This document shows, in pieces, positions 5,909 through 62,609 of a stretch of DNA of 64,000 nt; within the stretch, counting starts at the first letter, position 1; each line of letters starts with the position of its first letter. Source of the DNA: Escherichia virus TH43; the sequence record MT446414.1. One strand, given 5' to 3'. Under the pieces are notes generated by a model. The model was given only the letters and a program-made list of their open reading frames with translations. It was not told where the DNA came from and did no database searches. Both the position numbers and the translations under genes were made by a program.

Positions 5909-6167
5909 TATGAAGATCAGCTTAATCCAAATCCGTGATCATCTTTTTAATGGTGATGCTCAGACTCATGATTACAAGGTTAATCAAGGACAACACCCTA
6001 CCAACCACCTGATTGGAGGGATTTCTTTATTGCCTAATAAAACAGCACGAACTAATGTAATGATTCGTGGTAAGGATGGAAAATTCCTTTCTTATCGTGA
6101 TCTTGAAATCTGTGCTGATGTTCGTACAGCTATGAACAATCTGAAACCTTTCCCGACAGTGGAGTAA
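5898..6167 (+). CDS. hypothetical protein; paralog of 5657..5908 (possible start 5910)
   Basis: shared TARTNV.IRG.DGKF.SYRD...NLKPFP. Confidence 0.5.
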   Translation: MVHNMKISLIQIRDHLFNGDAQTHDYKVNQGQHPTNHLIGGISLLPNKTARTNVMIRGKDGKFLSYRDLEICADVRTAMNNLKPFPTVE

Positions 6168-6170
6168 GTT

Positions 6171-6524
6171 ATGCCAGTACCTCAACGCCTAGAACGTCAC
6201 TGCGTTCTCAAATGGGACAATATTCATGACAACCTCTCCATTCAAGAGTTTCGTCAGTTTATTGAATTAACAGCGAAGATTAACCGAAACCAACCAGCTC
6301 GAAACTTTGTAGTGGTTAGTGATAAGTATCCTGAGTTGTATGAGCAGGTGTGGGGTATGAAACTTGCACAGGTTCAGAGAAACAGCAATGAACGAAGAGA
6401 AACTCGTAGACAGCGAGCAGAAGATATTCCAGCAGTCTTTTATGTGGATGAATTAACGGAATCCTATGAACAGTTAGATATTGTCGAGGATAACCAAGCG
6501 TTCACTGATTTAATATACCAATAA
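6171..6524 (+). CDS. hypothetical protein
   Basis: ORF track. Confidence 0.5.
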   Translation: MPVPQRLERHCVLKWDNIHDNLSIQEFRQFIELTAKINRNQPARNFVVVSDKYPELYEQVWGMKLAQVQRNSNERRETRRQRAEDIPAVFYVDELTESYEQLDIVEDNQAFTDLIYQ

Positions 6525-6537
6525 TTATAAGGAGTGG

Positions 6538-8385
6538 GTGATGGATAACCCTGATAAGTTACCTTTCATAACGGAGATGACAGTCGCTGATATAATCTCA
6601 AAGCAGGCGAAGCATGGCGTCAACTTCCACAGAAGAAACGCTCGGTGGTTTGTTCACCTTCTCAAAGAGATTATTGTCAATATTGATAAAGAACTGATTC
6701 CTCTCCTCCCCAAAATGCGGGTGGATGGTTCAACTTATTCGAAACCTTTTAAGAAGTCAGGTGCTTTACAGAAGTGGCCTCAGCTCTATTGTGACAGAGT
6801 TGGTCTTAAAAGAGAAGATATCGGTGGGGCGTTTACTTGCGTTGAGTATGTAGACTTCGACCCATCGAAAGATGCACGTATCAAAGAAGCCTTGATGGAC
6901 GAAGGCTTTATTCCTCCAGAGTGGAACACATCCAAGAAACCTTGGAATACTTACGAAATCCGTAAAGCGATGAAGAAGTATGGCACATATGCTGCTTGGT
7001 ATTCTGCTTGGATGCGGGGAAACGCTAAAGAAAAACAGACAGCTGAGATGATTGACGCTGACATTCGTCGGTTCTTGGATAAACACTTCCGTTATCACAC
7101 TGTCAATTACATGAAAGCGTACGTTAGTGGTTTAGGTTTGAATCCGAACAGGAAGAAGCCTGTAACCTTTGATGAAATTAAGAAAGCTTTAGCCATGTCA
7201 AACAAGTGGCCTACAGCTCCTACAAACCTCGAGGAGACGCTTGAAGAAGGTCTTGGGGGTGAGCTAGGGGGTGTGGGAGGTTTGCTTAAGAGACGTGTTG
7301 TAGCGGCTCACAGGCTTGGCTTGATTAATGGTCTTATAGACAAGGAACGAGAAGATGGTAAGTTGTCCGCCGAAGCTAATAGCTGCGCTACTCCGACATT
7401 TCGTTTTAAACACCGTATTGTTGTTAATATTCCTTCTCGCGGTTTGTTTGGTCACGAGTGCCGCAGTCTATTTCAGTCTGACTGTACCTCAAGTGATAGT
7501 AATCACAATCCTATCATCATTACCAACCATATCCCTGATGGGTGTTACGTACGAAAAGGTACAAACACTATCTACGAAGTGGGAAAACCGGGCAAGAAAG
7601 ACAAACCGATAGGTGCTCTGAAATATTACATACCTTCTGGTCATGAAGTATTTCTTGGTTATGATGGTTCAGGGTTAGAACTGCGTATGCTGGCTCACTA
7701 CCTTATTAAAGAGTGTCGTGAGATGTTGGCAGAGGCAGAACAAGAGAATAACCCAGCTAAGAAACGAGAAGCTGAACGCGGTTTAGCATCTGCCGTATTG
7801 TACAGAGATATTCTCTTACAGGGTGATATTCACTCCCATAACCAGAAACTTGCTGGCTTGCCTACCCGTGATAATGCTAAGACGTTTATCTACGCATTCA
7901 ACTACGGAGCTGGTGATGCTAAGCTAGGTAGTATTGTTGGTGGTGGGGCTGATGAAGGTTCTATAATGAGAGCTAGATTCTTAGCAGAGAACCCTTGTAT
8001 TGCAATCCTTATTGAACGTATGACAGAGAAAGCACAAAGTGGATACATCTACGGTGTTGACGGTCGTCGTATTACAATGAGACGTGACGGTACAGGAAAG
8101 GTCATGACACACAAAGCCTTAAATACGCTCTTACAGAGCGCTGGGGCGATTGTTATGAAGTATGCAATGCTATTCCTCAATAAATGGATTGAGCGTGATG
8201 GTGTTCGTTGTGCGAAGGTTATCGACATGCATGATGAAGGCCAGTTCACTGTACATCGTGAAGATGTTAACAAACTTCGTACTCTCACTGAAGAGTGTGT
8301 TCGTAAAGCGGGTGAATACCTCAAGATGGAATGTCCTCTTGCATCAGATTGTAAGATTGGGCTTAACTGGAATCATACTCACTAA
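6538..8385 (+). CDS. DNA polymerase, family A (Pol I-like)
   Basis: motif A DGSGLELRMLAH, motif B RDNAKTFIYAFNYGAG, motif C MHDE; RBS AGGAG. Confidence 0.85.
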   Translation: MMDNPDKLPFITEMTVADIISKQAKHGVNFHRRNARWFVHLLKEIIVNIDKELIPLLPKMRVDGSTYSKPFKKSGALQKWPQLYCDRVGLKREDIGGAFTCVEYVDFDPSKDARIKEALMDEGFIPPEWNTSKKPWNTYEIRKAMKKYGTYAAWYSAWMRGNAKEKQTAEMIDADIRRFLDKHFRYHTVNYMKAYVSGLGLNPNRKKPVTFDEIKKALAMSNKWPTAPTNLEETLEEGLGGELGGVGGLLKRRVVAAHRLGLINGLIDKEREDGKLSAEANSCATPTFRFKHRIVVNIPSRGLFGHECRSLFQSDCTSSDSNHNPIIITNHIPDGCYVRKGTNTIYEVGKPGKKDKPIGALKYYIPSGHEVFLGYDGSGLELRMLAHYLIKECREMLAEAEQENNPAKKREAERGLASAVLYRDILLQGDIHSHNQKLAGLPTRDNAKTFIYAFNYGAGDAKLGSIVGGGADEGSIMRARFLAENPCIAILIERMTEKAQSGYIYGVDGRRITMRRDGTGKVMTHKALNTLLQSAGAIVMKYAMLFLNKWIERDGVRCAKVIDMHDEGQFTVHREDVNKLRTLTEECVRKAGEYLKMECPLASDCKIGLNWNHTH

Positions 8386-48504: not shown

Positions 48505-48532
48505 TTGACATGTTTTTCCTTTAATATATAGT
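48505..48532 (+). promoter_or_regulatory. sigma70-type promoter (TTGACA-16-TATAGT)
   Basis: consensus -35 and near-consensus -10; ~40 nt upstream of gene at 48571. Confidence 0.6.
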
Positions 48533-51010: not shown

Positions 51011-51038
51011 TTGACACGTCGAATCGTTATGATAAGAT
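51011..51038 (+). promoter_or_regulatory. sigma70 promoter (TTGACA-16-TAAGAT)
   Basis: consensus -35; -10 TAAGAT. Confidence 0.55.
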
Positions 51039-51084: not shown

Positions 51085-51097
51085 CGCTCTTTAATAA
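51085..51097 (+). promoter_or_regulatory. boxA-like antitermination element (CGCTCTTTAATAA)
   Basis: preceded by hairpin GGCACTAAGTGCC; followed by TTTATC as in rrn leaders. Confidence 0.55.
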
Positions 51098-51223: not shown

Positions 51224-51236
51224 CGCTCTTTAAAAA
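51224..51236 (+). promoter_or_regulatory. boxA-like antitermination element (CGCTCTTTAAAAA)
   Basis: ~25 nt downstream of promoter at 51173. Confidence 0.5.
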
Positions 51237-51458: not shown

Positions 51459-51472
51459 CGCTCTTTAACAAT
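51459..51472 (+). promoter_or_regulatory. boxA-like antitermination element (CGCTCTTTAACAATTTA)
   Basis: near-identical to E. coli rrn leader boxA; preceded by hairpin GTGTGAGAAAGCACAC. Confidence 0.6.
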
Positions 51473-52285
51473 TTAAACATTCTCCTATATCGGTTGAATA
51501 TGCTAGATGATAATAACCATCGGATAGCATACCAGATAAAACGGTGTAAGATTCTCTAAGTTATCAGAGTAAACAATCTCACAATCCCTTACTGGAAACG
51601 TCACCACTGATAAGCAGATTCATCGAGTGCACGCAAAGACTTAAGCTAATCGCCCACGGTTAAGGGTAGCGGCGGTCATCGCTAACAAGGCGCTACGGTG
51701 AAAGAAGTTAATCAGGGTAGACAAGCCCGACTAATTAACGCTCAATTGAGAGCGGCGGGGAGTGGTTAAAAAGTGGCAAATTGCTATTTAACAATAAGGT
51801 TTAGTGTGAACGTTTACGAAGTGAATGATTTGAGGCCACTATTGATGGCGTACATAATCAGTTTATGTAGTAAACCTGCTGAAAGATATAAAACGTCAAT
51901 GTATCAGGCGGCTAATGACTCTTTCGCAATAACCTCCCGTAGTGGGCGATGGTTAGCGATTGAGAGTTGGTATAAAAGGATAGGCGGGAGCGAAAGCAAA
52001 GTAAACGATATTACCGACGGTTACAATAAAGTAACTAATTAGAGTCGGGCACACTGCCTTATTGTGATGATTGATCATCGCTATCAGGTCGGCTTCGTTT
52101 ATAGCGACTAATTAAAGATACCAGATGAAACATCACGGATAATGGGGCGGCTAGGTTAACTCCTGATAAGACCGCCCCACTTACCTATAACTACTTAATA
52201 ACGAGCGGTTATAGTTAAGTCATTGTGACTTGAATAGCTCATAGAGAGCGGCGCATAGAGCGTTTCAATTAAAAGGTAAATTATC

Positions 52286-53188: not shown

Positions 53189-53208
53189 CTTACAATAAAG
53201 AACATATA

Positions 53209-54462: not shown

Positions 54463-54494
54463 GCCTCTTCTCTGTACCAGTAGTCAACTACTAT

Positions 54495-54547
54495 GACGCT
54501 CTTCTTGAGCGTCTTTGTGTCTGCCGCCTTTGTGCGGCTTTTTGCGT
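54495..54547 (+). terminator. two tandem rho-independent terminator hairpins
   Basis: GACGCTC...GAGCGTC then GCCGC...GCGGC, each followed by T-tract. Confidence 0.5.
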
Positions 54548-54703
54548 AGCTAGTGATGCCTAAAGGGAAAGCCCTTTGTGAATCATTGGCATGGTTCAAT
54601 CCCTATTGGATGGTCATTTGACCGGGCCTTTAACGAGGCCGCTTTTTTAAGAGTCTTTACGAGGATTCTTAAATGAGTGAGGTCATGTTCACTCTTTCAG
54701 GTC

Positions 54704-54730
54704 GCCCCGTCTTCGGATGGGGCTTTTTTA
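54704..54730 (+). terminator. rho-independent terminator
   Basis: GCCCCGTC-TTCG-GATGGGGC hairpin plus TTTTTT. Confidence 0.6.
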
Positions 54731-54781
54731 TGCCCGTAAAACAGGAGGTAGTAAGTTCTGATAACGACAGCCCAGCTACTT

Positions 54782-55675: not shown

Positions 55676-55835
55676 GTTCACCACTGGTCACACTGTTCGC
55701 CTTGTTGGCGGTACTCAAACAGGTGTTATTCGTCGGAGAACAACGATTGATGGTGTTCTCTGTTATCTTGTTCAGTGGAATGGTGAATCCTCTCCTTCCT
55801 TCGAACGTCGTACTGATTTGGTGTTAATCAAATGA
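55644..55835 (+). CDS. small basic beta-rich protein
   Basis: ORF track 55473..55835; internal ATG. Confidence 0.4.
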   Translation: MRKQRMRSRVKFTTGHTVRLVGGTQTGVIRRRTTIDGVLCYLVQWNGESSPSFERRTDLVLIK

Positions 55836-56062
55836 AAATTAATCTCCCATCTTTAGTTGTTACTAAAAAGCTCAGCGATCTACGTCCGGGTGATGTATTC
55901 CGTCTACCAACTAACTCTGAACACCTCTATCTAAAGACAGACACCTGCCTGAATGATATGCATCGTGTGGTTGGTCTTCGTCAGGGAACACTATTCCAGT
56001 TACAGGAACATCATGAAGTTATCCCTGTATTTGATGTTCAAGTGACTAATATTGGTGGTTAA
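55832..56062 (+). CDS. small protein, PGDxF paralog family
   Basis: LSDLRPGDVFRL motif. Confidence 0.5.
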   Translation: MKINLPSLVVTKKLSDLRPGDVFRLPTNSEHLYLKTDTCLNDMHRVVGLRQGTLFQLQEHHEVIPVFDVQVTNIGG

Positions 56063-56287
56063 ATGAAGATTGACATTGATAGTACGCCAGAGGTTGTAAC
56101 TCTCGGAGACCTAAATCCGGGTGAAGTCTTCCAGTTTAACTACAATGAAACTCAATACTACATGCGTACTGCGTGTTATGGTGAAAACAAAAGTTATTTT
56201 GTTAACCTTTATACAGGTAAGCGTGATTCTGAGTGTAAATCGACTGTAGTCAGACCTGTACCTAACGCACAACTAACCAACAAGTAA
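56063..56287 (+). CDS. small protein, PGDxF paralog family
   Basis: LGDLNPGEVFQF motif. Confidence 0.5.
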   Translation: MKIDIDSTPEVVTLGDLNPGEVFQFNYNETQYYMRTACYGENKSYFVNLYTGKRDSECKSTVVRPVPNAQLTNK

Positions 56288-56296
56288 CATCGACTT

Positions 56297-56324
56297 ATAG
56301 CCCTTGTGCTTATCAGAGGGCTAT
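56297..56324 (+). repeat. conserved hairpin ATAGCCCT-N12-AGGGCTAT (copy 1 of 2)
   Basis: near-identical copy at 62206..62233. Confidence 0.6.
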
Positions 56325-56589
56325 GTGAGGATGTTCCTCAATTAACTATAATCTCAATGCCATATGGCTCACCGCTAGGGCGAGACTTGTCTCAAACATC
56401 CGGTGATAGACTAAAACCTGTTAATTTTCGAATGGCATTCCGATATGTAGGGGTATGTATCGGTTTGGGATAGAGAACAATCTAGGGGTAGAAAGTTCTC
56501 GACAGTTTGTACAAGCGGAAGCCTTAACGTGTAGGGCTTCCCTTTATATTAACTGGCAATCCTGCCTCCATTAACAAAGAGAGAACGTT

Positions 56590-56730
56590 ATGAAAAAGAC
56601 AACCAAACGTATGAACCGTCCTGAACGTATGGATGCAGTAGCAAATGGTGCTCTGAAGATTGAGTCTGCCATGCTCCGTCTGACAACTAACATCCGTAAA
56701 CGTCAGGGTGATTGGTTCTATGGCGGCTGA
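56590..56730 (+). CDS. small basic protein (46 aa)
   Basis: manual translation; RBS AAAGAGAGAA. Confidence 0.3.
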   Translation: MKKTTKRMNRPERMDAVANGALKIESAMLRLTTNIRKRQGDWFYGG

Positions 56731-58317: not shown

Positions 58318-58740
58318 TTGAAGATAGAGTTAGAATACCCCTTCGTTAATGACTGGCGATTGGGCTACTTAAGAACAAGCAGAGACGGTAGGAAGCGTGT
58401 TGATTTGTATAATACCGACACGGAGAGGACAACCATTTCTTACGCAAGATATTTAATGTCTTGTCACATAGGCAGGTACCTAACTGAAGACGAGGAGGTT
58501 GATCATATTGACAGAAATAAAACTAATGATGACATATCTAATCTTCAGATACTTTCCATAGAAAATCACAGAAAGAAGTCAACATTAGAAGCAACTACTG
58601 GAAGAACAATGATTTCAGTTGTTTGCTCTTATTGTGGAAGATCTTTTGAAAAAGAAAAGCGAAATGTTAAATATGCAAATTCTTTTTGTAACAGATCATG
58701 TGCAGGTAAGTATAACGGTTTCAAATCTATCGGGGCGTAG
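58318..58740 (+). CDS. HNH homing-endonuclease-like protein
   Basis: EEVDHIDRNKTNDDISNLQILSIENHRKK HNH motif. Confidence 0.55.
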   Translation: MKIELEYPFVNDWRLGYLRTSRDGRKRVDLYNTDTERTTISYARYLMSCHIGRYLTEDEEVDHIDRNKTNDDISNLQILSIENHRKKSTLEATTGRTMISVVCSYCGRSFEKEKRNVKYANSFCNRSCAGKYNGFKSIGA

Positions 58741-58806
58741 TCTAGTGGAACAGGCAGCGAGCTTCTAACTCGCCTTACGAGGGTTCGAATCCTTCCGTCC
58801 CGACCA
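58731..58806 (+). tRNA. tRNA-Arg (anticodon TCT)
   Basis: hand-folded 76 nt cloverleaf: 7 bp acceptor, D-loop with GG, anticodon loop CTTCTAA, T-loop TTCGAAT, encoded CCA. Confidence 0.8.
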
Positions 58807-59780: not shown

Positions 59781-60029
59781 ATGTCTTCTAAAAAGAAAGA
59801 ACTGTTCAACAAACGCCTTTCTGATGCCCTTCAGTGGCGTCGTGATGTTGCTAATGGCTGCGTAAAAGCAAGCTATGAAACATTCAGTGGGTTTGATGAA
59901 ACCTATGCAGGGTTCAAAGGAAGCATCTCCTGTGATGATCTCGATAAGATTTGTGAAAAGTCTTATGAGATGGAAGATAATCTTTGTATTGGCTGGAGCA
60001 TGGGGGAGCTTCGTCCCAACACTAAGTAA
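59781..60029 (+). CDS. hypothetical protein
   Basis: ORF track. Confidence 0.45.
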   Translation: MSSKKKELFNKRLSDALQWRRDVANGCVKASYETFSGFDETYAGFKGSISCDDLDKICEKSYEMEDNLCIGWSMGELRPNTK

Positions 60030-60305
60030 TATCGTGAAGGATTCTTACGAGAGTCCTTTGAGATAGGACTTCAGATCTCCTATCAACTAACCGCTCAATG
60101 TTGAGCATTTTAATCACATAAGCCCCTCATGGGCTGGGTTTAATGCCGGTAAGCGTTTTATGCTATCCACTACAGCATCGGATTGTTAGGTCTTACATGC
60201 AACATTAATTAATAGGATATGGGAGGATTCGTCCCCTCCCCCTATTTATGAAAGCATTCTTCCGAGAGTTCTCTCATAAATTGGTCCATAACTAAAGGTG
60301 GTAAA

Positions 60306-60560
60306 ATGAAAGTTAACATGCCAGCAGGTAAAAATTCAATACCCCTCAGTGCTTTGCGACTTGGGGATTGCTTCATGTACCCTAACAGTGAAGATGGTGA
60401 TTTGTACATCTTACTGTCTACCGAGTTCTCAACTCGCTTGTGCATTAAGGGTGCGGACGAGCACAGACTTGTAGCCTGTCTTAACACAGGCCGAGCGACA
60501 GCGCCTCGTAAAGATGTTGCTGTTATTCCTATTAAAGCTGAAGCAATTATTAAGGAATAA
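60306..60560 (+). CDS. small protein, PGDxF paralog family
   Basis: LSALRLGDCFMY motif. Confidence 0.5.
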   Translation: MKVNMPAGKNSIPLSALRLGDCFMYPNSEDGDLYILLSTEFSTRLCIKGADEHRLVACLNTGRATAPRKDVAVIPIKAEAIIKE

Positions 60561-61715: not shown

Positions 61716-61949
61716 ATGTCTAAAGTTAGCGCAATTGATGCCATCCGCCAGCCGTTCCAGTTCCAGTCCAAATCAACCCAAACCTTCAGCGAACCTCGCC
61801 AGATTCGTCTGGGCGGCACAGAGAAATCTGTGTTTGATATTGCGAAAAATAAAAGCGTGACCATCGTCGAAGGTGGTGAGCTGGTTAATGTTTCCCATCG
61901 TATCCGCACTGGTAAAACTGCCAAAGATCGTGCTAAGAAAGGTCTGTAA
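61716..61949 (+). CDS. hypothetical protein
   Basis: ORF track. Confidence 0.45.
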   Translation: MSKVSAIDAIRQPFQFQSKSTQTFSEPRQIRLGGTEKSVFDIAKNKSVTIVEGGELVNVSHRIRTGKTAKDRAKKGL

Positions 61950-62200
61950 TGCAAATTGCTAATAAAACCCCTCCTGAATCAATTATCCAAGTAAAGGATA
62001 TGTCACCGGGAGATGTATTTCGTGCAACGGAATATCCGGGGGATTTCTTTATTCGAATCCCCTCAGCATCTGTTGGTGGTATCGCTAAACCGGTAACAGC
62101 AGTTCAGCTAAGTACGGGTCATCTCTTCCGTTTAGAGATTGATATGATTGTGATTCCTGTTCCAACAGCAATCCTCCGCTTCGACGGAGCCACAGAGTAA
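61949..62200 (+). CDS. small protein, PGDxF paralog family
   Basis: KDMSPGDVFRA motif. Confidence 0.5.
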   Translation: MQIANKTPPESIIQVKDMSPGDVFRATEYPGDFFIRIPSASVGGIAKPVTAVQLSTGHLFRLEIDMIVIPVPTAILRFDGATE

Positions 62201-62205
62201 CATCT

Positions 62206-62233
62206 ATAGCCCTTGTGAGTATCAGAGGGCTAT
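62206..62233 (+). repeat. conserved hairpin ATAGCCCT-N12-AGGGCTAT (copy 2 of 2)
   Basis: near-identical to 56297..56324. Confidence 0.6.
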
Positions 62234-62441
62234 GTGAGCTATTCTGGCTCAACTAACCTAAACTTAATTTAATCTTACCCGTATGGGGCCGATGCTAGGG
62301 AGAGGAACAGTCCTCGAACATCCGTCGGATAGAATATTTTAAGAGCAGGTTATCCACAGATATTGGGTGATATCTATTTAATTGGCCTTAAAGCTTGGCT
62401 CTCTTAGGAGAGTCCTTTTTTAAGTTCAAAGAAGAGGTTGT

Positions 62442-62609
62442 ATGGATAATAAGTTGAAAGTTAAGTTCTTATTGGCAGCAATCTTTATTTGCTTAGCCAC
62501 CGTGGGGTTTGCCCGTGTGACTTCCTTTGTATCTTGTGAATTAAGCAAGAACAACAGAGGGTCTTATAACTGGCTTACCAATCAATGTGATAAACAGGAG
62601 AAGTTATGA
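62442..62609 (+). CDS. small secreted protein (55 aa)
   Basis: manual translation MDNKLKVKFLLAAIFICLATVGFA...; RBS GAAGAGG. Confidence 0.4.
   Translation: MDNKLKVKFLLAAIFICLATVGFARVTSFVSCELSKNNRGSYNWLTNQCDKQEKL

Follow-up and report, generated by a model that had tools for sequence, protein, structure and literature searches.

A duplicated structured RNA module in the early operon of Escherichia virus TH43, with relatives in three phage families

Introduction

Why do two noncoding gaps among the early genes of a coliphage carry almost the same hairpin when the genes beside them have diverged so much further? The question arises from a 64,000-nucleotide stretch of Escherichia virus TH43 (record MT446414.1; called the window below, with positions counted from its first base on the strand given 5' to 3'), whose + strand carries ATAGCCCTTGTGCTTATCAGAGGGCTATGTGAG at 56297-56329 and, nearly 6 kb further on, ATAGCCCTTGTGAGTATCAGAGGGCTATGTGAG at 62206-62238. 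An earlier note, made from the sequence alone, had located these hairpins and proposed that they, together with a related element of about 90 nt downstream of each, are under selection as noncoding sequence. To our knowledge, lytic coliphages are not known for elaborate noncoding RNAs. We find that hairpin and element belong to one module, present as copies A and B, which is conserved in sequence, forms the same helices with covariation that is specific to one strand, and occurs in three phage families.

Results

One module, present twice

The two 33-mers differ at two positions, both of them in the loop. They were the sole matches in a search of the whole window that allowed up to three mismatches, and 100 shuffles gave none; repeat analysis of the window assigned the two copies of this hairpin (H1) to family D9, with 94% identity over 34 nt. 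The similarity downstream was also found where the earlier note had placed it, with 56359-56410 and 62278-62333 having GCTAGGGNGAG...CTCNAACATCCG...ATAGA in common. This element corresponds to two further hairpins, H3 and H4, and H1 and H3/H4 are parts of a single module that is larger than had been described, extending over 56285-56589 in type A (about 300 nt) and 62198-62441 in type B (about 240 nt). Both copies begin 9-12 nt past the stop codon of a small open reading frame (ORF; 56063-56287 and 61949-62200, respectively). They follow a shared plan in which H1, UGAG, H2 and the linker CAACUAACC lead into a core made up of H3 and H4, and type-specific hairpins complete the 3' part. The same set of helices was obtained when the copies were folded separately, even though their sequences differ. 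H4 has an invariant 7x7 internal loop, with CUAGGGN as its 5' strand and NAACAUC as its 3' strand, and is topped by a variable apical hairpin.

Compensatory changes assign the fold to the transcribed strand

We aligned 39 distinct A and B sequences with MAFFT and scored 23 pairs of H1, H3 and H4. These pairs were formed in 99.0% of cells, nine of them had changes on both sides, and the covariation score was 0.305 versus no more than 0.068 for controls in which partners were slid by 1-3 columns. When sequences from Gamaleyavirus (see below) were added, double-sided changes were seen in 15 of the 23 pairs and 99.1% of cells paired, over 38 distinct sequences. The signal was consistent across every helix: the nine pairs of H1 were 98.8% paired and seven had double-sided changes once Gamaleyavirus was included, H3 was 100% paired with compensatory changes in two of three pairs, and four of the six pairs in the outer stem of H4 were compensatory. 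Additional compensatory pairs were present in H2, in a candidate long-range helix (P1b) and in the terminator of type B, and in H5, H6 and H7 of type A. G·U pairs were frequent (UG occurred in 28, 14 and 19 sequences at individual pairs, for example) and, as such pairs are A·C mismatches on the opposite strand, the fold belongs to the transcribed strand.

Sequence comparisons lead to the same place. Over their full length, modules A and B of the window are 82% and 86% identical to those of phiEco32, compared with 16-79% for the flanking coding sequences, and module B is 71-75% identical to its counterpart in Salmonella phage 7-11. Together with the compensatory substitutions, this bears out the proposal of selection on noncoding sequence. 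When A and B of the window are compared with each other, identity at the DNA level is 94% for H1, 67% for the remainder of the core and 55% for the upstream genes, so that the flanking genes are indeed the more diverged partners, and with flanks this unequal a recent segmental duplication can be rejected as the source of the similarity. The near-identity of the hairpins had itself been taken as a sign of selection. This holds for the helices, but the 32/34 identity of H1 is a special case, being restricted to the Suseptimavirus lineage (the window, ECBP2 and two metagenomic contigs); in Kuravirus both the loop (CUUCGG) and the stem of B-H1 differ from A-H1. A lineage-specific identity of this kind points to homogenization between copies and not to purifying selection alone.

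Judged by their sequences, modules A and B are ancient paralogues of a conserved, strand-specific, structured untranslated RNA, and we are highly confident that they are functional as such.

Distribution among phages

By sequence the window is a phiEco32-like coliphage (Suseptimavirus/Kuravirus, podophages of Gordonclarkvirinae). Its 55.8-57.0 kb region matches Escherichia phages vB_EcoP_HC-25922, MLP3 and IME267 at 98-99% identity and ECBP2 at about 90%, and its orientation is reversed relative to the GenBank records of these relatives. Copy A was found in 98 phage records, near full length in 97 of them, and a copy-B homologue in 103 records including Salmonella phage 7-11; both modules are carried by about 100 related phage genomes. 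The two copies were syntenic in every relative that we opened (phiEco32, ECBP2, MN05, SDYTW1, LAMP and Bas94), occupying the gaps gp113|gp112 (A) and gp91|gp90 (B) in phiEco32.

Pattern scans and BLAST identified a type B copy in Salmonella phage 7-11, SE131 and pSal-SNUABM-01 (Grimontviridae; the 7-11 group is Moazamivirus), where it precedes the amidoligase gene block and so keeps its syntenic position. Phages 7-11 and phiEco32 have only 41 homologous ORFs in common (PMC8948821). A covariance model (R1) built from the 39 distinct A and B sequences matched only the two copies in the window and a single one in 7-11. Among pattern-prefiltered viral loci, it also aligned over its full length, scoring 37-41 bits (E about 1e-6 to 1e-5), to ECBP1, G7C, pSb-1 and PhAPEC5, which are G7C-like, N4-like phages of the genus Gamaleyavirus. 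BLAST widened the Gamaleyavirus set to dozens of records, with one copy per phage. The degenerate pattern scans of viral contigs yielded mostly chance matches (L015, L017, L025, L040 and most of L041-L215), and these were filtered out by the covariance model. At the sequence level, there was no meaningful match to the modules in 5,426 E. coli genomes.

What lies downstream of the module varies: gp112 or gp90 in phiEco32-like phages, an endolysin gene in 7-11, and another noncoding module in G7C. The function is therefore not tied to one downstream gene, and a dedicated leader is unlikely. In G7C, about 1.9 kb between gp47.2 and gp50, the gene for the virion RNA polymerase, carry a noncoding annotation, and the module stands at the beginning of this stretch.

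Anatomy of modules A and B

All features below are on the + strand. The 5' edge of A (56285-56296) contains the stop codon TAA (56285-56287) of the upstream ORF, a member of the PGDxF family described below, within the motif (A)GUAAC(A/G)YC, which is kept before H1 regardless of the upstream gene; in B the edge lies at 62198-62205, with the stop codon TAA at 62198-62200 inside GUAACAUC. A-H1 (56297-56324), the hairpin of the earlier note, has the stem AUAGCCCU/AGGGCUAU and a 12-nt loop, and B-H1 (62206-62233) has the same stem. Elsewhere H1 loops range from 12 nt to CUUCGG tetraloops, the latter in the B copy of Kuravirus, and in 7-11 the stem is extended. H2 is UGAGG-AUGUU-CCUCA in A (56326-56340) and UGAGCUA-UUC-UGGCUCA in B (62235-62251), where two of its pairs are compensatory.

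The linker of A (56341-56358) is AU-rich and unpaired and includes TATAAT at 56347-56352; that of B (62252-62277) holds the conserved ACUAACCUA and the 5' strands of two candidate helices, P1a (UAACCU, 62254-62259) and P1b (CUUAA, 62263-62267). H3 is GCC-AUAU-GGC in A (56359-56368) and CCC-GUAU-GGG in B (62278-62287). A-H4 (56369-56410) consists of the outer stem UCACCG/CGGUGA, the loop CUAGGGC/AAACAUC and the apical hairpin GAGAC-UU-GUCUC and is followed by UAGA; B-H4 (62289-62333) consists of CCGAUG/CGUCGG, CUAGGGA/GAACAUC and GAGGA-ACAG-UCCUC and is followed by AUAGA. No variation was seen at the A-H4 loop nucleotides in alignment A4. The 3' strands of P1b (UUAAG) and P1a (AGGUUA) in B lie at 62339-62358, and in A the segments AAUUAAC (56340-56346) and GUUAAUU (56420-56426) may pair in the same way. 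We tentatively propose that this long-range helix, P1, closes H3 and H4 into a three-way junction. It is predicted both by RNAalifold and by single-sequence folding; P1a is invariant and P1b weakly covarying, and both are conserved in Gamaleyavirus.

The 3' parts are where the two types diverge. Type A continues with two hairpins that have the same 8-nt loop, UAGGGGUA, namely H5 (56440-56463; alignment pairs 149-172) and H6 (56473-56500; pairs 184-211, three compensatory). These are followed by H7, a 53-nt irregular hairpin (56503-56555; pairs 214-266, at least five compensatory), the upper part of which (56517-56541) scored as terminator-like although its tail pairs into the lower stem. The last segment (56555-56589) comprises a small hairpin, H8 (GGCAAUCCUGCC), and the ribosome-binding region of the gp112-like gene (ATG at 56590). 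In type B, H5 (62358-62375; AGAUAU-UGGGUG-AUAUCU), which is not present in 7-11, and a U-rich stretch precede a canonical intrinsic terminator (62387-62424) with the 7-bp stem GGCUCUC/GAGAGUC, the loop UUAG, a C and U6. An upstream A-tract pairs with the U-tract of this terminator, the gp90-like gene begins 20 nt after it, and a terminator is annotated at the same position in the 7-11 and SU7 records. Type B is thus ordered as conserved domain, intrinsic terminator and gene, whereas type A has a long hairpin without a U-tract in most phages.

H2 of type A contains GGAUGUU (56328-56334), every base of which can pair with the invariant AACAUCC in the H4 loop (56395-56401). In other phages A-H2 reads GGGUGUU, with G·U kept, and the complementarity to H4 is absent from type B. 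Judging from the letters, this could be a pseudoknot or an alternative fold.

Identities tested and excluded

Searches of the window and both regions against Rfam 15, at gathering and permissive thresholds, gave a single match that passed, the tRNA at 58731. The best Rfam match in the modules was a 12-nt Ocean-VII hit in the H1 loop, at 10 bits versus a threshold of 53.5, and TarB and STnc100 reached 21-22 bits (thresholds 80 and 47) in the terminator region only. ARAGORN called no tRNA or tmRNA at the modules, either in the window or in the G7C noncoding region. We also considered whether the modules encode a small protein, as the ORF 56306-56473 and a 33-aa coding sequence annotated in Bas94 might suggest. 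This was rejected, as no conserved ORF crosses the module, the substitutions are pair-preserving and, on inspection of the sequences, apical-hairpin indels put different lineages in different reading frames.

Promoter function fared no better. The TATAAT of the A linker lacks a -35 element and is not conserved in relatives, in agreement with the earlier view that these are not sigma-70 promoters; the best promoter-like combinations within the modules reached at most 9/12, with the -35 at 3/6, and were not conserved either. The phage sigma factor gp36 of phiEco32 recognizes the promoter element tAATGTAtA (PMC8948821), and neither module contains the corresponding motif, TAATGTATA, with one mismatch or fewer.

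The sole perfect DnaA box of the window, TTATCCACA, lies inside module B (62350-62358, + strand), overlapping the 3' strands of P1, and the next gene's start codon is overlapped by a box with one mismatch on the - strand (62441-62449). Every type B copy, that of 7-11 among them, keeps the perfect 9-mer unchanged, but in Gamaleyavirus it is degraded (TTATCTCAG/TTATCACAG) and the P1a strand GGUUAU alone is kept. Its complementarity to the transcript of the dnaA leader/promoter region amounts to 10 nt, the box plus one base. As there is one box only, which is not kept in Gamaleyavirus, we do not consider it part of a DnaA-box cluster or origin and regard it as incidental.

With regard to transcription elongation, neither boxA (CGCUCUUA/UGCUCUUUAACA) on the + strand nor lambda boxB was found inside A or B. 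A riboswitch-type antiterminator was likewise rejected, as inspection revealed the pairing AAGAGC:GCUCUU in Kuravirus B only, with its loss in 7-11 and pSal-SNUABM-01. Published Kuravirus RNA-seq papers did not analyze phage transcripts, and the preprint on G7C as a horse phage does not mention the region.

The early operon and its boxA elements

The early genes occupy the + strand from about 48.4 kb, with consensus sigma-70 promoters at 48505, 51011, 51173 and 51341. This agrees with the layout described for SU10 and phiEco32, in which one promoter lies at the genome end and three in a spacer (PMC4281155). Coordinate 1 and the last base of the GenBank records map to about 48.4 kb of the window; since the window passes through this record end, its source is a permuted or circularized assembly. 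GC skew tracks the direction of transcription, being positive at 1-16 kb, negative at 16-48 kb and positive at 48-64 kb. Modules A and B lie within the early operon, 5 and 11 kb downstream of the early promoters. A tRNA-Arg (58731-58806, ARAGORN) is located in the same region. Strong terminators at 53208 and 54704 are situated upstream of both A (56.3 kb) and B (62.2 kb), and no module precedes either of them.

Three exact copies of the boxA-like sequence CCGCTCTTTAA were observed at 51085-51094, 51224-51233 and 51459-51475 (+ strand), each 20-90 nt downstream of one of the early promoters at 51011, 51173 and 51341. Over 16 nt the third, GCTCTTTAACAATTTA, matches the boxA region of the E. coli K-12 rrnB leader (L252, 267-282) without a difference, and a hairpin, GGCACTAAGTGCC, precedes the first. 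Copies are kept in the same spacer of phiEco32, ECBP2, MN05, LAMP, Bas94 and SDYTW1, at 2-5 per genome, and none was found in the part of the 7-11 genome that was examined. E. coli transcribes long untranslated structured RNA by means of rrn-type antitermination, and the position and sequence of the phage copies suggest that the Kuravirus early operon uses Nus-factor-dependent antitermination of this type. A literature search found no link between phiEco32 and boxA. Because the boxA copies stand beside the promoters, processive antitermination is better assigned to them than to modules A and B.

A third module with the same 5' cassette

ORF 59781-60029 and its stop codon are followed by a further structured noncoding module, type C (60030-60260, + strand). 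What it shares with A and B is confined to the 5' two-hairpin cassette: H1' (60037-60058), UGAG, H2' (60063-60083) and CAACUAACC (60084-60092). The body is a different one, consisting of GCUCAAUGUUGAGC, an invariant UUGUUAGGUCUUACAUGCAAC and a final hairpin, GGGAGGAUUCGUCCCCUCCC, at 60221-60240. Type C is kept in phiEco32 (gap gp101|gp100), Bas94, MN05, G7C and ECBP1.

The cassette H1-UGAG-H2-CAACUAACC therefore stands at three junctions of the window in front of bodies that differ. Similar arrangements of H1-GNGAG-H2 (UAUAGCC..GGCUAU GCGAG..CUC) without H3 or H4 were observed in unrelated viral metagenome contigs (L163, 5472-5535; L205, 2921-3019 on the - strand; L178, 1242-1354). In L163, the cassette lies in the gap between two genes, with a stop codon on one side and the following gene's ribosome-binding site on the other. 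As it occurs without the core in unrelated contigs, the 5' cassette may be an independent and more widespread element.

PGDxF genes and other neighbors

In the window each H1 hairpin follows a gene of the PGDxF family, as the earlier note had stated, and the proteins encoded by the ORFs preceding A (56063-56287) and B (61949-62200) are 29% identical. There are four such PGD/E-V-F paralogues of 74-84 aa on the + strand, two upstream of A (55832-56062 and 56063-56287), one downstream of C (60306-60560) and one upstream of B (61949-62200). In 7-11 and pSal-SNUABM-01, too, the gene in front of the module is a homologue. The association is nevertheless frequent and not universal, for modules are preceded by gp91 in phiEco32 and by gp116 in Bas94 and LAMP. 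More generally, the upstream genes vary among related phages while the module and the downstream genes are retained. An AlphaFold model of the PGDxF protein is a five-stranded SH3-like barrel (pLDDT 83). We considered this protein as a specific RNA-binding partner and set the idea aside, since the barrel is generic and the weak matches to FeoA, EF-P/KOW and Tudor domains (E about 0.1) are uninformative. Searches of the flanking ORFs against Pfam and PHROGs returned matches of unknown function only.

Discussion

The comparative evidence leaves us with a conserved RNA fold and the question of what it does. We tentatively favor, at somewhat less than an even chance, the possibility that the module is a stable, protein-binding, trans-acting noncoding RNA excised from the early polycistronic transcript. 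The early operon that contains the module is transcribed by host RNA polymerase, and in such a scenario the module would be cut free of this transcript to yield a separate, stable species of about 150-290 nt, with its 3' end set by the terminator in B or the H7 hairpin in A and its 5' end by endonucleolytic cleavage in the linker or upstream of H1. Protein binding would involve the invariant unpaired nucleotides (the H4 internal loop and the UAGGGGUA/UGGGUA hairpin loops), and the partner would be either a factor that enterobacterial hosts have in common or a small protein of the phage itself. Our reasoning is that invariant unpaired nucleotides and repeated G-rich loops are found in three families with differing transcription machineries, which suggests a shared partner, probably a host factor. 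Consistent with this idea, the 3' part of B (hairpin, U-rich stretch, terminator and U6) resembles that of stable terminated RNAs, and three rrn-type boxA elements are present in the early leader.

Several observations weigh on the other side. No promoter of its own was found for either module, so that a discrete RNA requires processing, and type A is without a canonical terminator in most phages. The adjacent PGDxF proteins offer only a generic SH3-like barrel and weak matches. Covariation in P1 is slight, and on inspection of the sequence P1 looks broken in copy A of phiEco32. Finally, the alignment that includes Gamaleyavirus (A8) was fitted to the covariance model, and the sequences represent only about six lineages, so that counts of covarying pairs are not counts of independent events.

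A bolder version of this model, which we regard as possible but on the whole doubtful, is that the modules represent a new class of horizontally mobile structured phage noncoding RNA, distributed over Kuravirus/Suseptimavirus, the 7-11 group (Moazamivirus) and the N4-like Gamaleyavirus, which is cut from an rrn-like, boxA-antiterminated early "stable-RNA operon" and subverts a conserved factor of Enterobacteriaceae. Candidate targets would be RNA polymerase, the ribosome, an RNase or a defense protein, with the invariant CUAGGG/AACAUCC loop and the hairpin loops rich in G making the contact.

The alternative to which we give the most attention, while considering it unlikely, is that the modules punctuate mRNA, acting in cis as a signal for processing and stability within the early polycistronic mRNA. 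In that case H1 and H2 would protect the 3' end of the upstream mRNA after cleavage (by RNase E in the linker, or by RNase III or RNase P in the core) and the 3' hairpins would insulate the next cistron, with the noncoding block serving also as a recombination junction for early-gene cassettes. It is easy to see the appeal of this idea, as the modules always reach from a stop codon to the next gene's ribosome-binding site, the 5' cassette stands with different bodies at three junctions of the window and by itself between two genes in L163, and upstream genes are swapped between relatives while the module and downstream genes are kept. Yet the module is found at only three of several dozen early intercistronic junctions, and its invariant unpaired nucleotides and multiple helices, maintained in three families, exceed the needs of a cleavage site plus hairpin. 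Moreover, typical RNase III substrates comprise roughly two helical turns, and H4 (6 bp, the 7x7 loop and 3-5 bp) is shorter than that. There is precedent for punctuation of this kind in the early RNase III sites of T7, which are generally known, and in the PeSL cassettes of T4-like phages (PMC4122927). A punctuation role would be compatible with the excised trans-acting RNA that we favor and may be its first step.

We consider it improbable that the core of the nascent RNA controls transcription in cis, gating terminator read-through by host RNA polymerase, by itself or together with a protein, and with it the expression of the early genes downstream, in the manner of put, nut or an attenuator. 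This would account for the terminator between the core and the next gene in type B, where the interval, about 20 nt in Kuravirus and 35 nt in 7-11, is too short to hold a promoter, and for the two copies per operon, which recall putL/putR and nutL/nutR; in addition, according to Lavysh et al., the antitermination strategy of 7-11 "remains to be defined" (PMC8948821). The modules, however, are 5 and 11 kb from the promoters and past the strong terminators at 53208 and 54704, which have no module; the boxA elements by the promoters already offer processive antitermination; most phages have no canonical terminator behind type A; and no alternative antiterminator/terminator pairing is conserved. 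N4 middle genes are transcribed by the phage enzyme RNAPII and, by analogy, the block of middle genes at whose end the module sits in G7C-like phages is probably transcribed by RNAPII as well. An element acting at the level of DNA, whether a phage-sigma or sigma-70 promoter, a DnaA origin or roadblock, or an operator, is far less probable again. What speaks for it is the perfect TATAAT in A and the sole perfect DnaA box in B, invariant in type B; but the former is unconserved and without a -35, the latter is single and degraded in Gamaleyavirus, the gp36 motif is absent, and compensatory G·U changes that fit one strand only indicate selection on RNA and not on duplex DNA. We give the least weight of all to the notion that the modules have no function and are relics of segmental duplication or of recombination between copies. 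Although the 94% identity of H1 is specific to Suseptimavirus and best explained by recent homogenization, syntenic retention in about 100 genomes, the presence of one copy in each of two other families, structure-preserving substitutions and conservation above that of neighboring genes all contradict this.

Resemblance is greatest to intercistronic RNA elements in the early operons of other phages (T7 RNase III sites, put/nut and PeSL cassettes), yet each of the known systems that the modules call to mind differs from them in some respects. Like the early RNase III sites of T7, they are structured intercistronic RNAs of a podophage early operon that host RNA polymerase transcribes, occur in few copies, each framed by a stop codon and the ribosome-binding site that follows, and include hairpins with an internal loop; unlike those sites, they are 240-300 nt long with 6-8 helices and a junction core with invariant unpaired nucleotides, and H4 is shorter. 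HK022 put and lambda nut also occur as two related RNA elements per genome in early transcripts, with adjacent stem-loops and conserved internal-loop nucleotides, and the adjacent stem-loops H3 and H4 as well as the position of type B directly upstream of a terminator fit this picture. The modules, on the other hand, do not lie between an early promoter and the first terminators, as 53208 and 54704 come first, contain neither boxA nor boxB, and occur also where phage RNAPII probably transcribes. PeSL cassettes of T4-like phages consist of a stem-loop followed by a near-consensus sigma-70 early promoter (PMC4122927, PMC2839356). They are similar in being conserved noncoding cassettes that open with a stem-loop between small early ORFs and have genes on one side that differ in relatives, but the modules are without a sigma-70 promoter, number 2-3 copies as opposed to dozens, are 5-6 times longer and have a covariation-backed fold.

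T4 species 1 and 2 RNAs, the P4 CI RNA and the P1/P7 c4 RNA are structured phage RNAs cut from longer early transcripts. The modules are comparable to them as structured phage RNAs in a region that also holds a tRNA-Arg, but are without similarity in sequence or to the Rfam models and have no tRNA-like fold according to ARAGORN. Type B further resembles bacterial small RNAs derived from 3' untranslated regions, being a 3' untranslated region that ends in a hairpin, a U-rich stretch, a terminator and U6, whereas type A lacks a poly-U terminator and the conserved part is a folded core and not a linear seed. Since the testable defining features of these systems did not bear out a match, we have filed the modules under none of them; they are an undescribed RNA motif family of a familiar general kind.

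An RNA of 240-300 nt that is backed by covariation, better conserved than the host-takeover genes around it and exchanged among three phage families with unrelated transcription programs points to a function directed at the host and provides a concrete target for mutation, and phiEco32, G7C and 7-11 can all be cultivated on standard hosts. Taken together, the modules and the boxA elements suggest that, in part, the early operon of Kuravirus has the makeup of a stable-RNA operon. If so, this would address how early transcription crosses many terminators, a problem raised for 7-11 (PMC8948821) that applies equally to Kuravirus. Even if the modules turn out to be mRNA punctuation only, they would be a useful annotation for about 190 phage genomes in which the region is empty or filled with spurious small ORFs.

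Two neighboring observations concern other noncoding sequence. At 54463-54780 (+ strand), about 300 nt are without long ORFs and contain terminator-like hairpins in series at 54495, 54523, 54625 and 54704; this may be another noncoding RNA region of the early operon. In G7C (HQ259105), the interval 6065-7991 carries a B-like and a C-like module in tandem and two motifs resembling tRNA T-arms, GGGGTTCGATTCCC and GGTGGTTCGATTCCATCC, at which ARAGORN makes no tRNA call. Near its end, two apparently unannotated small ORFs with Shine-Dalgarno sequences and terminators can be recognized by eye.

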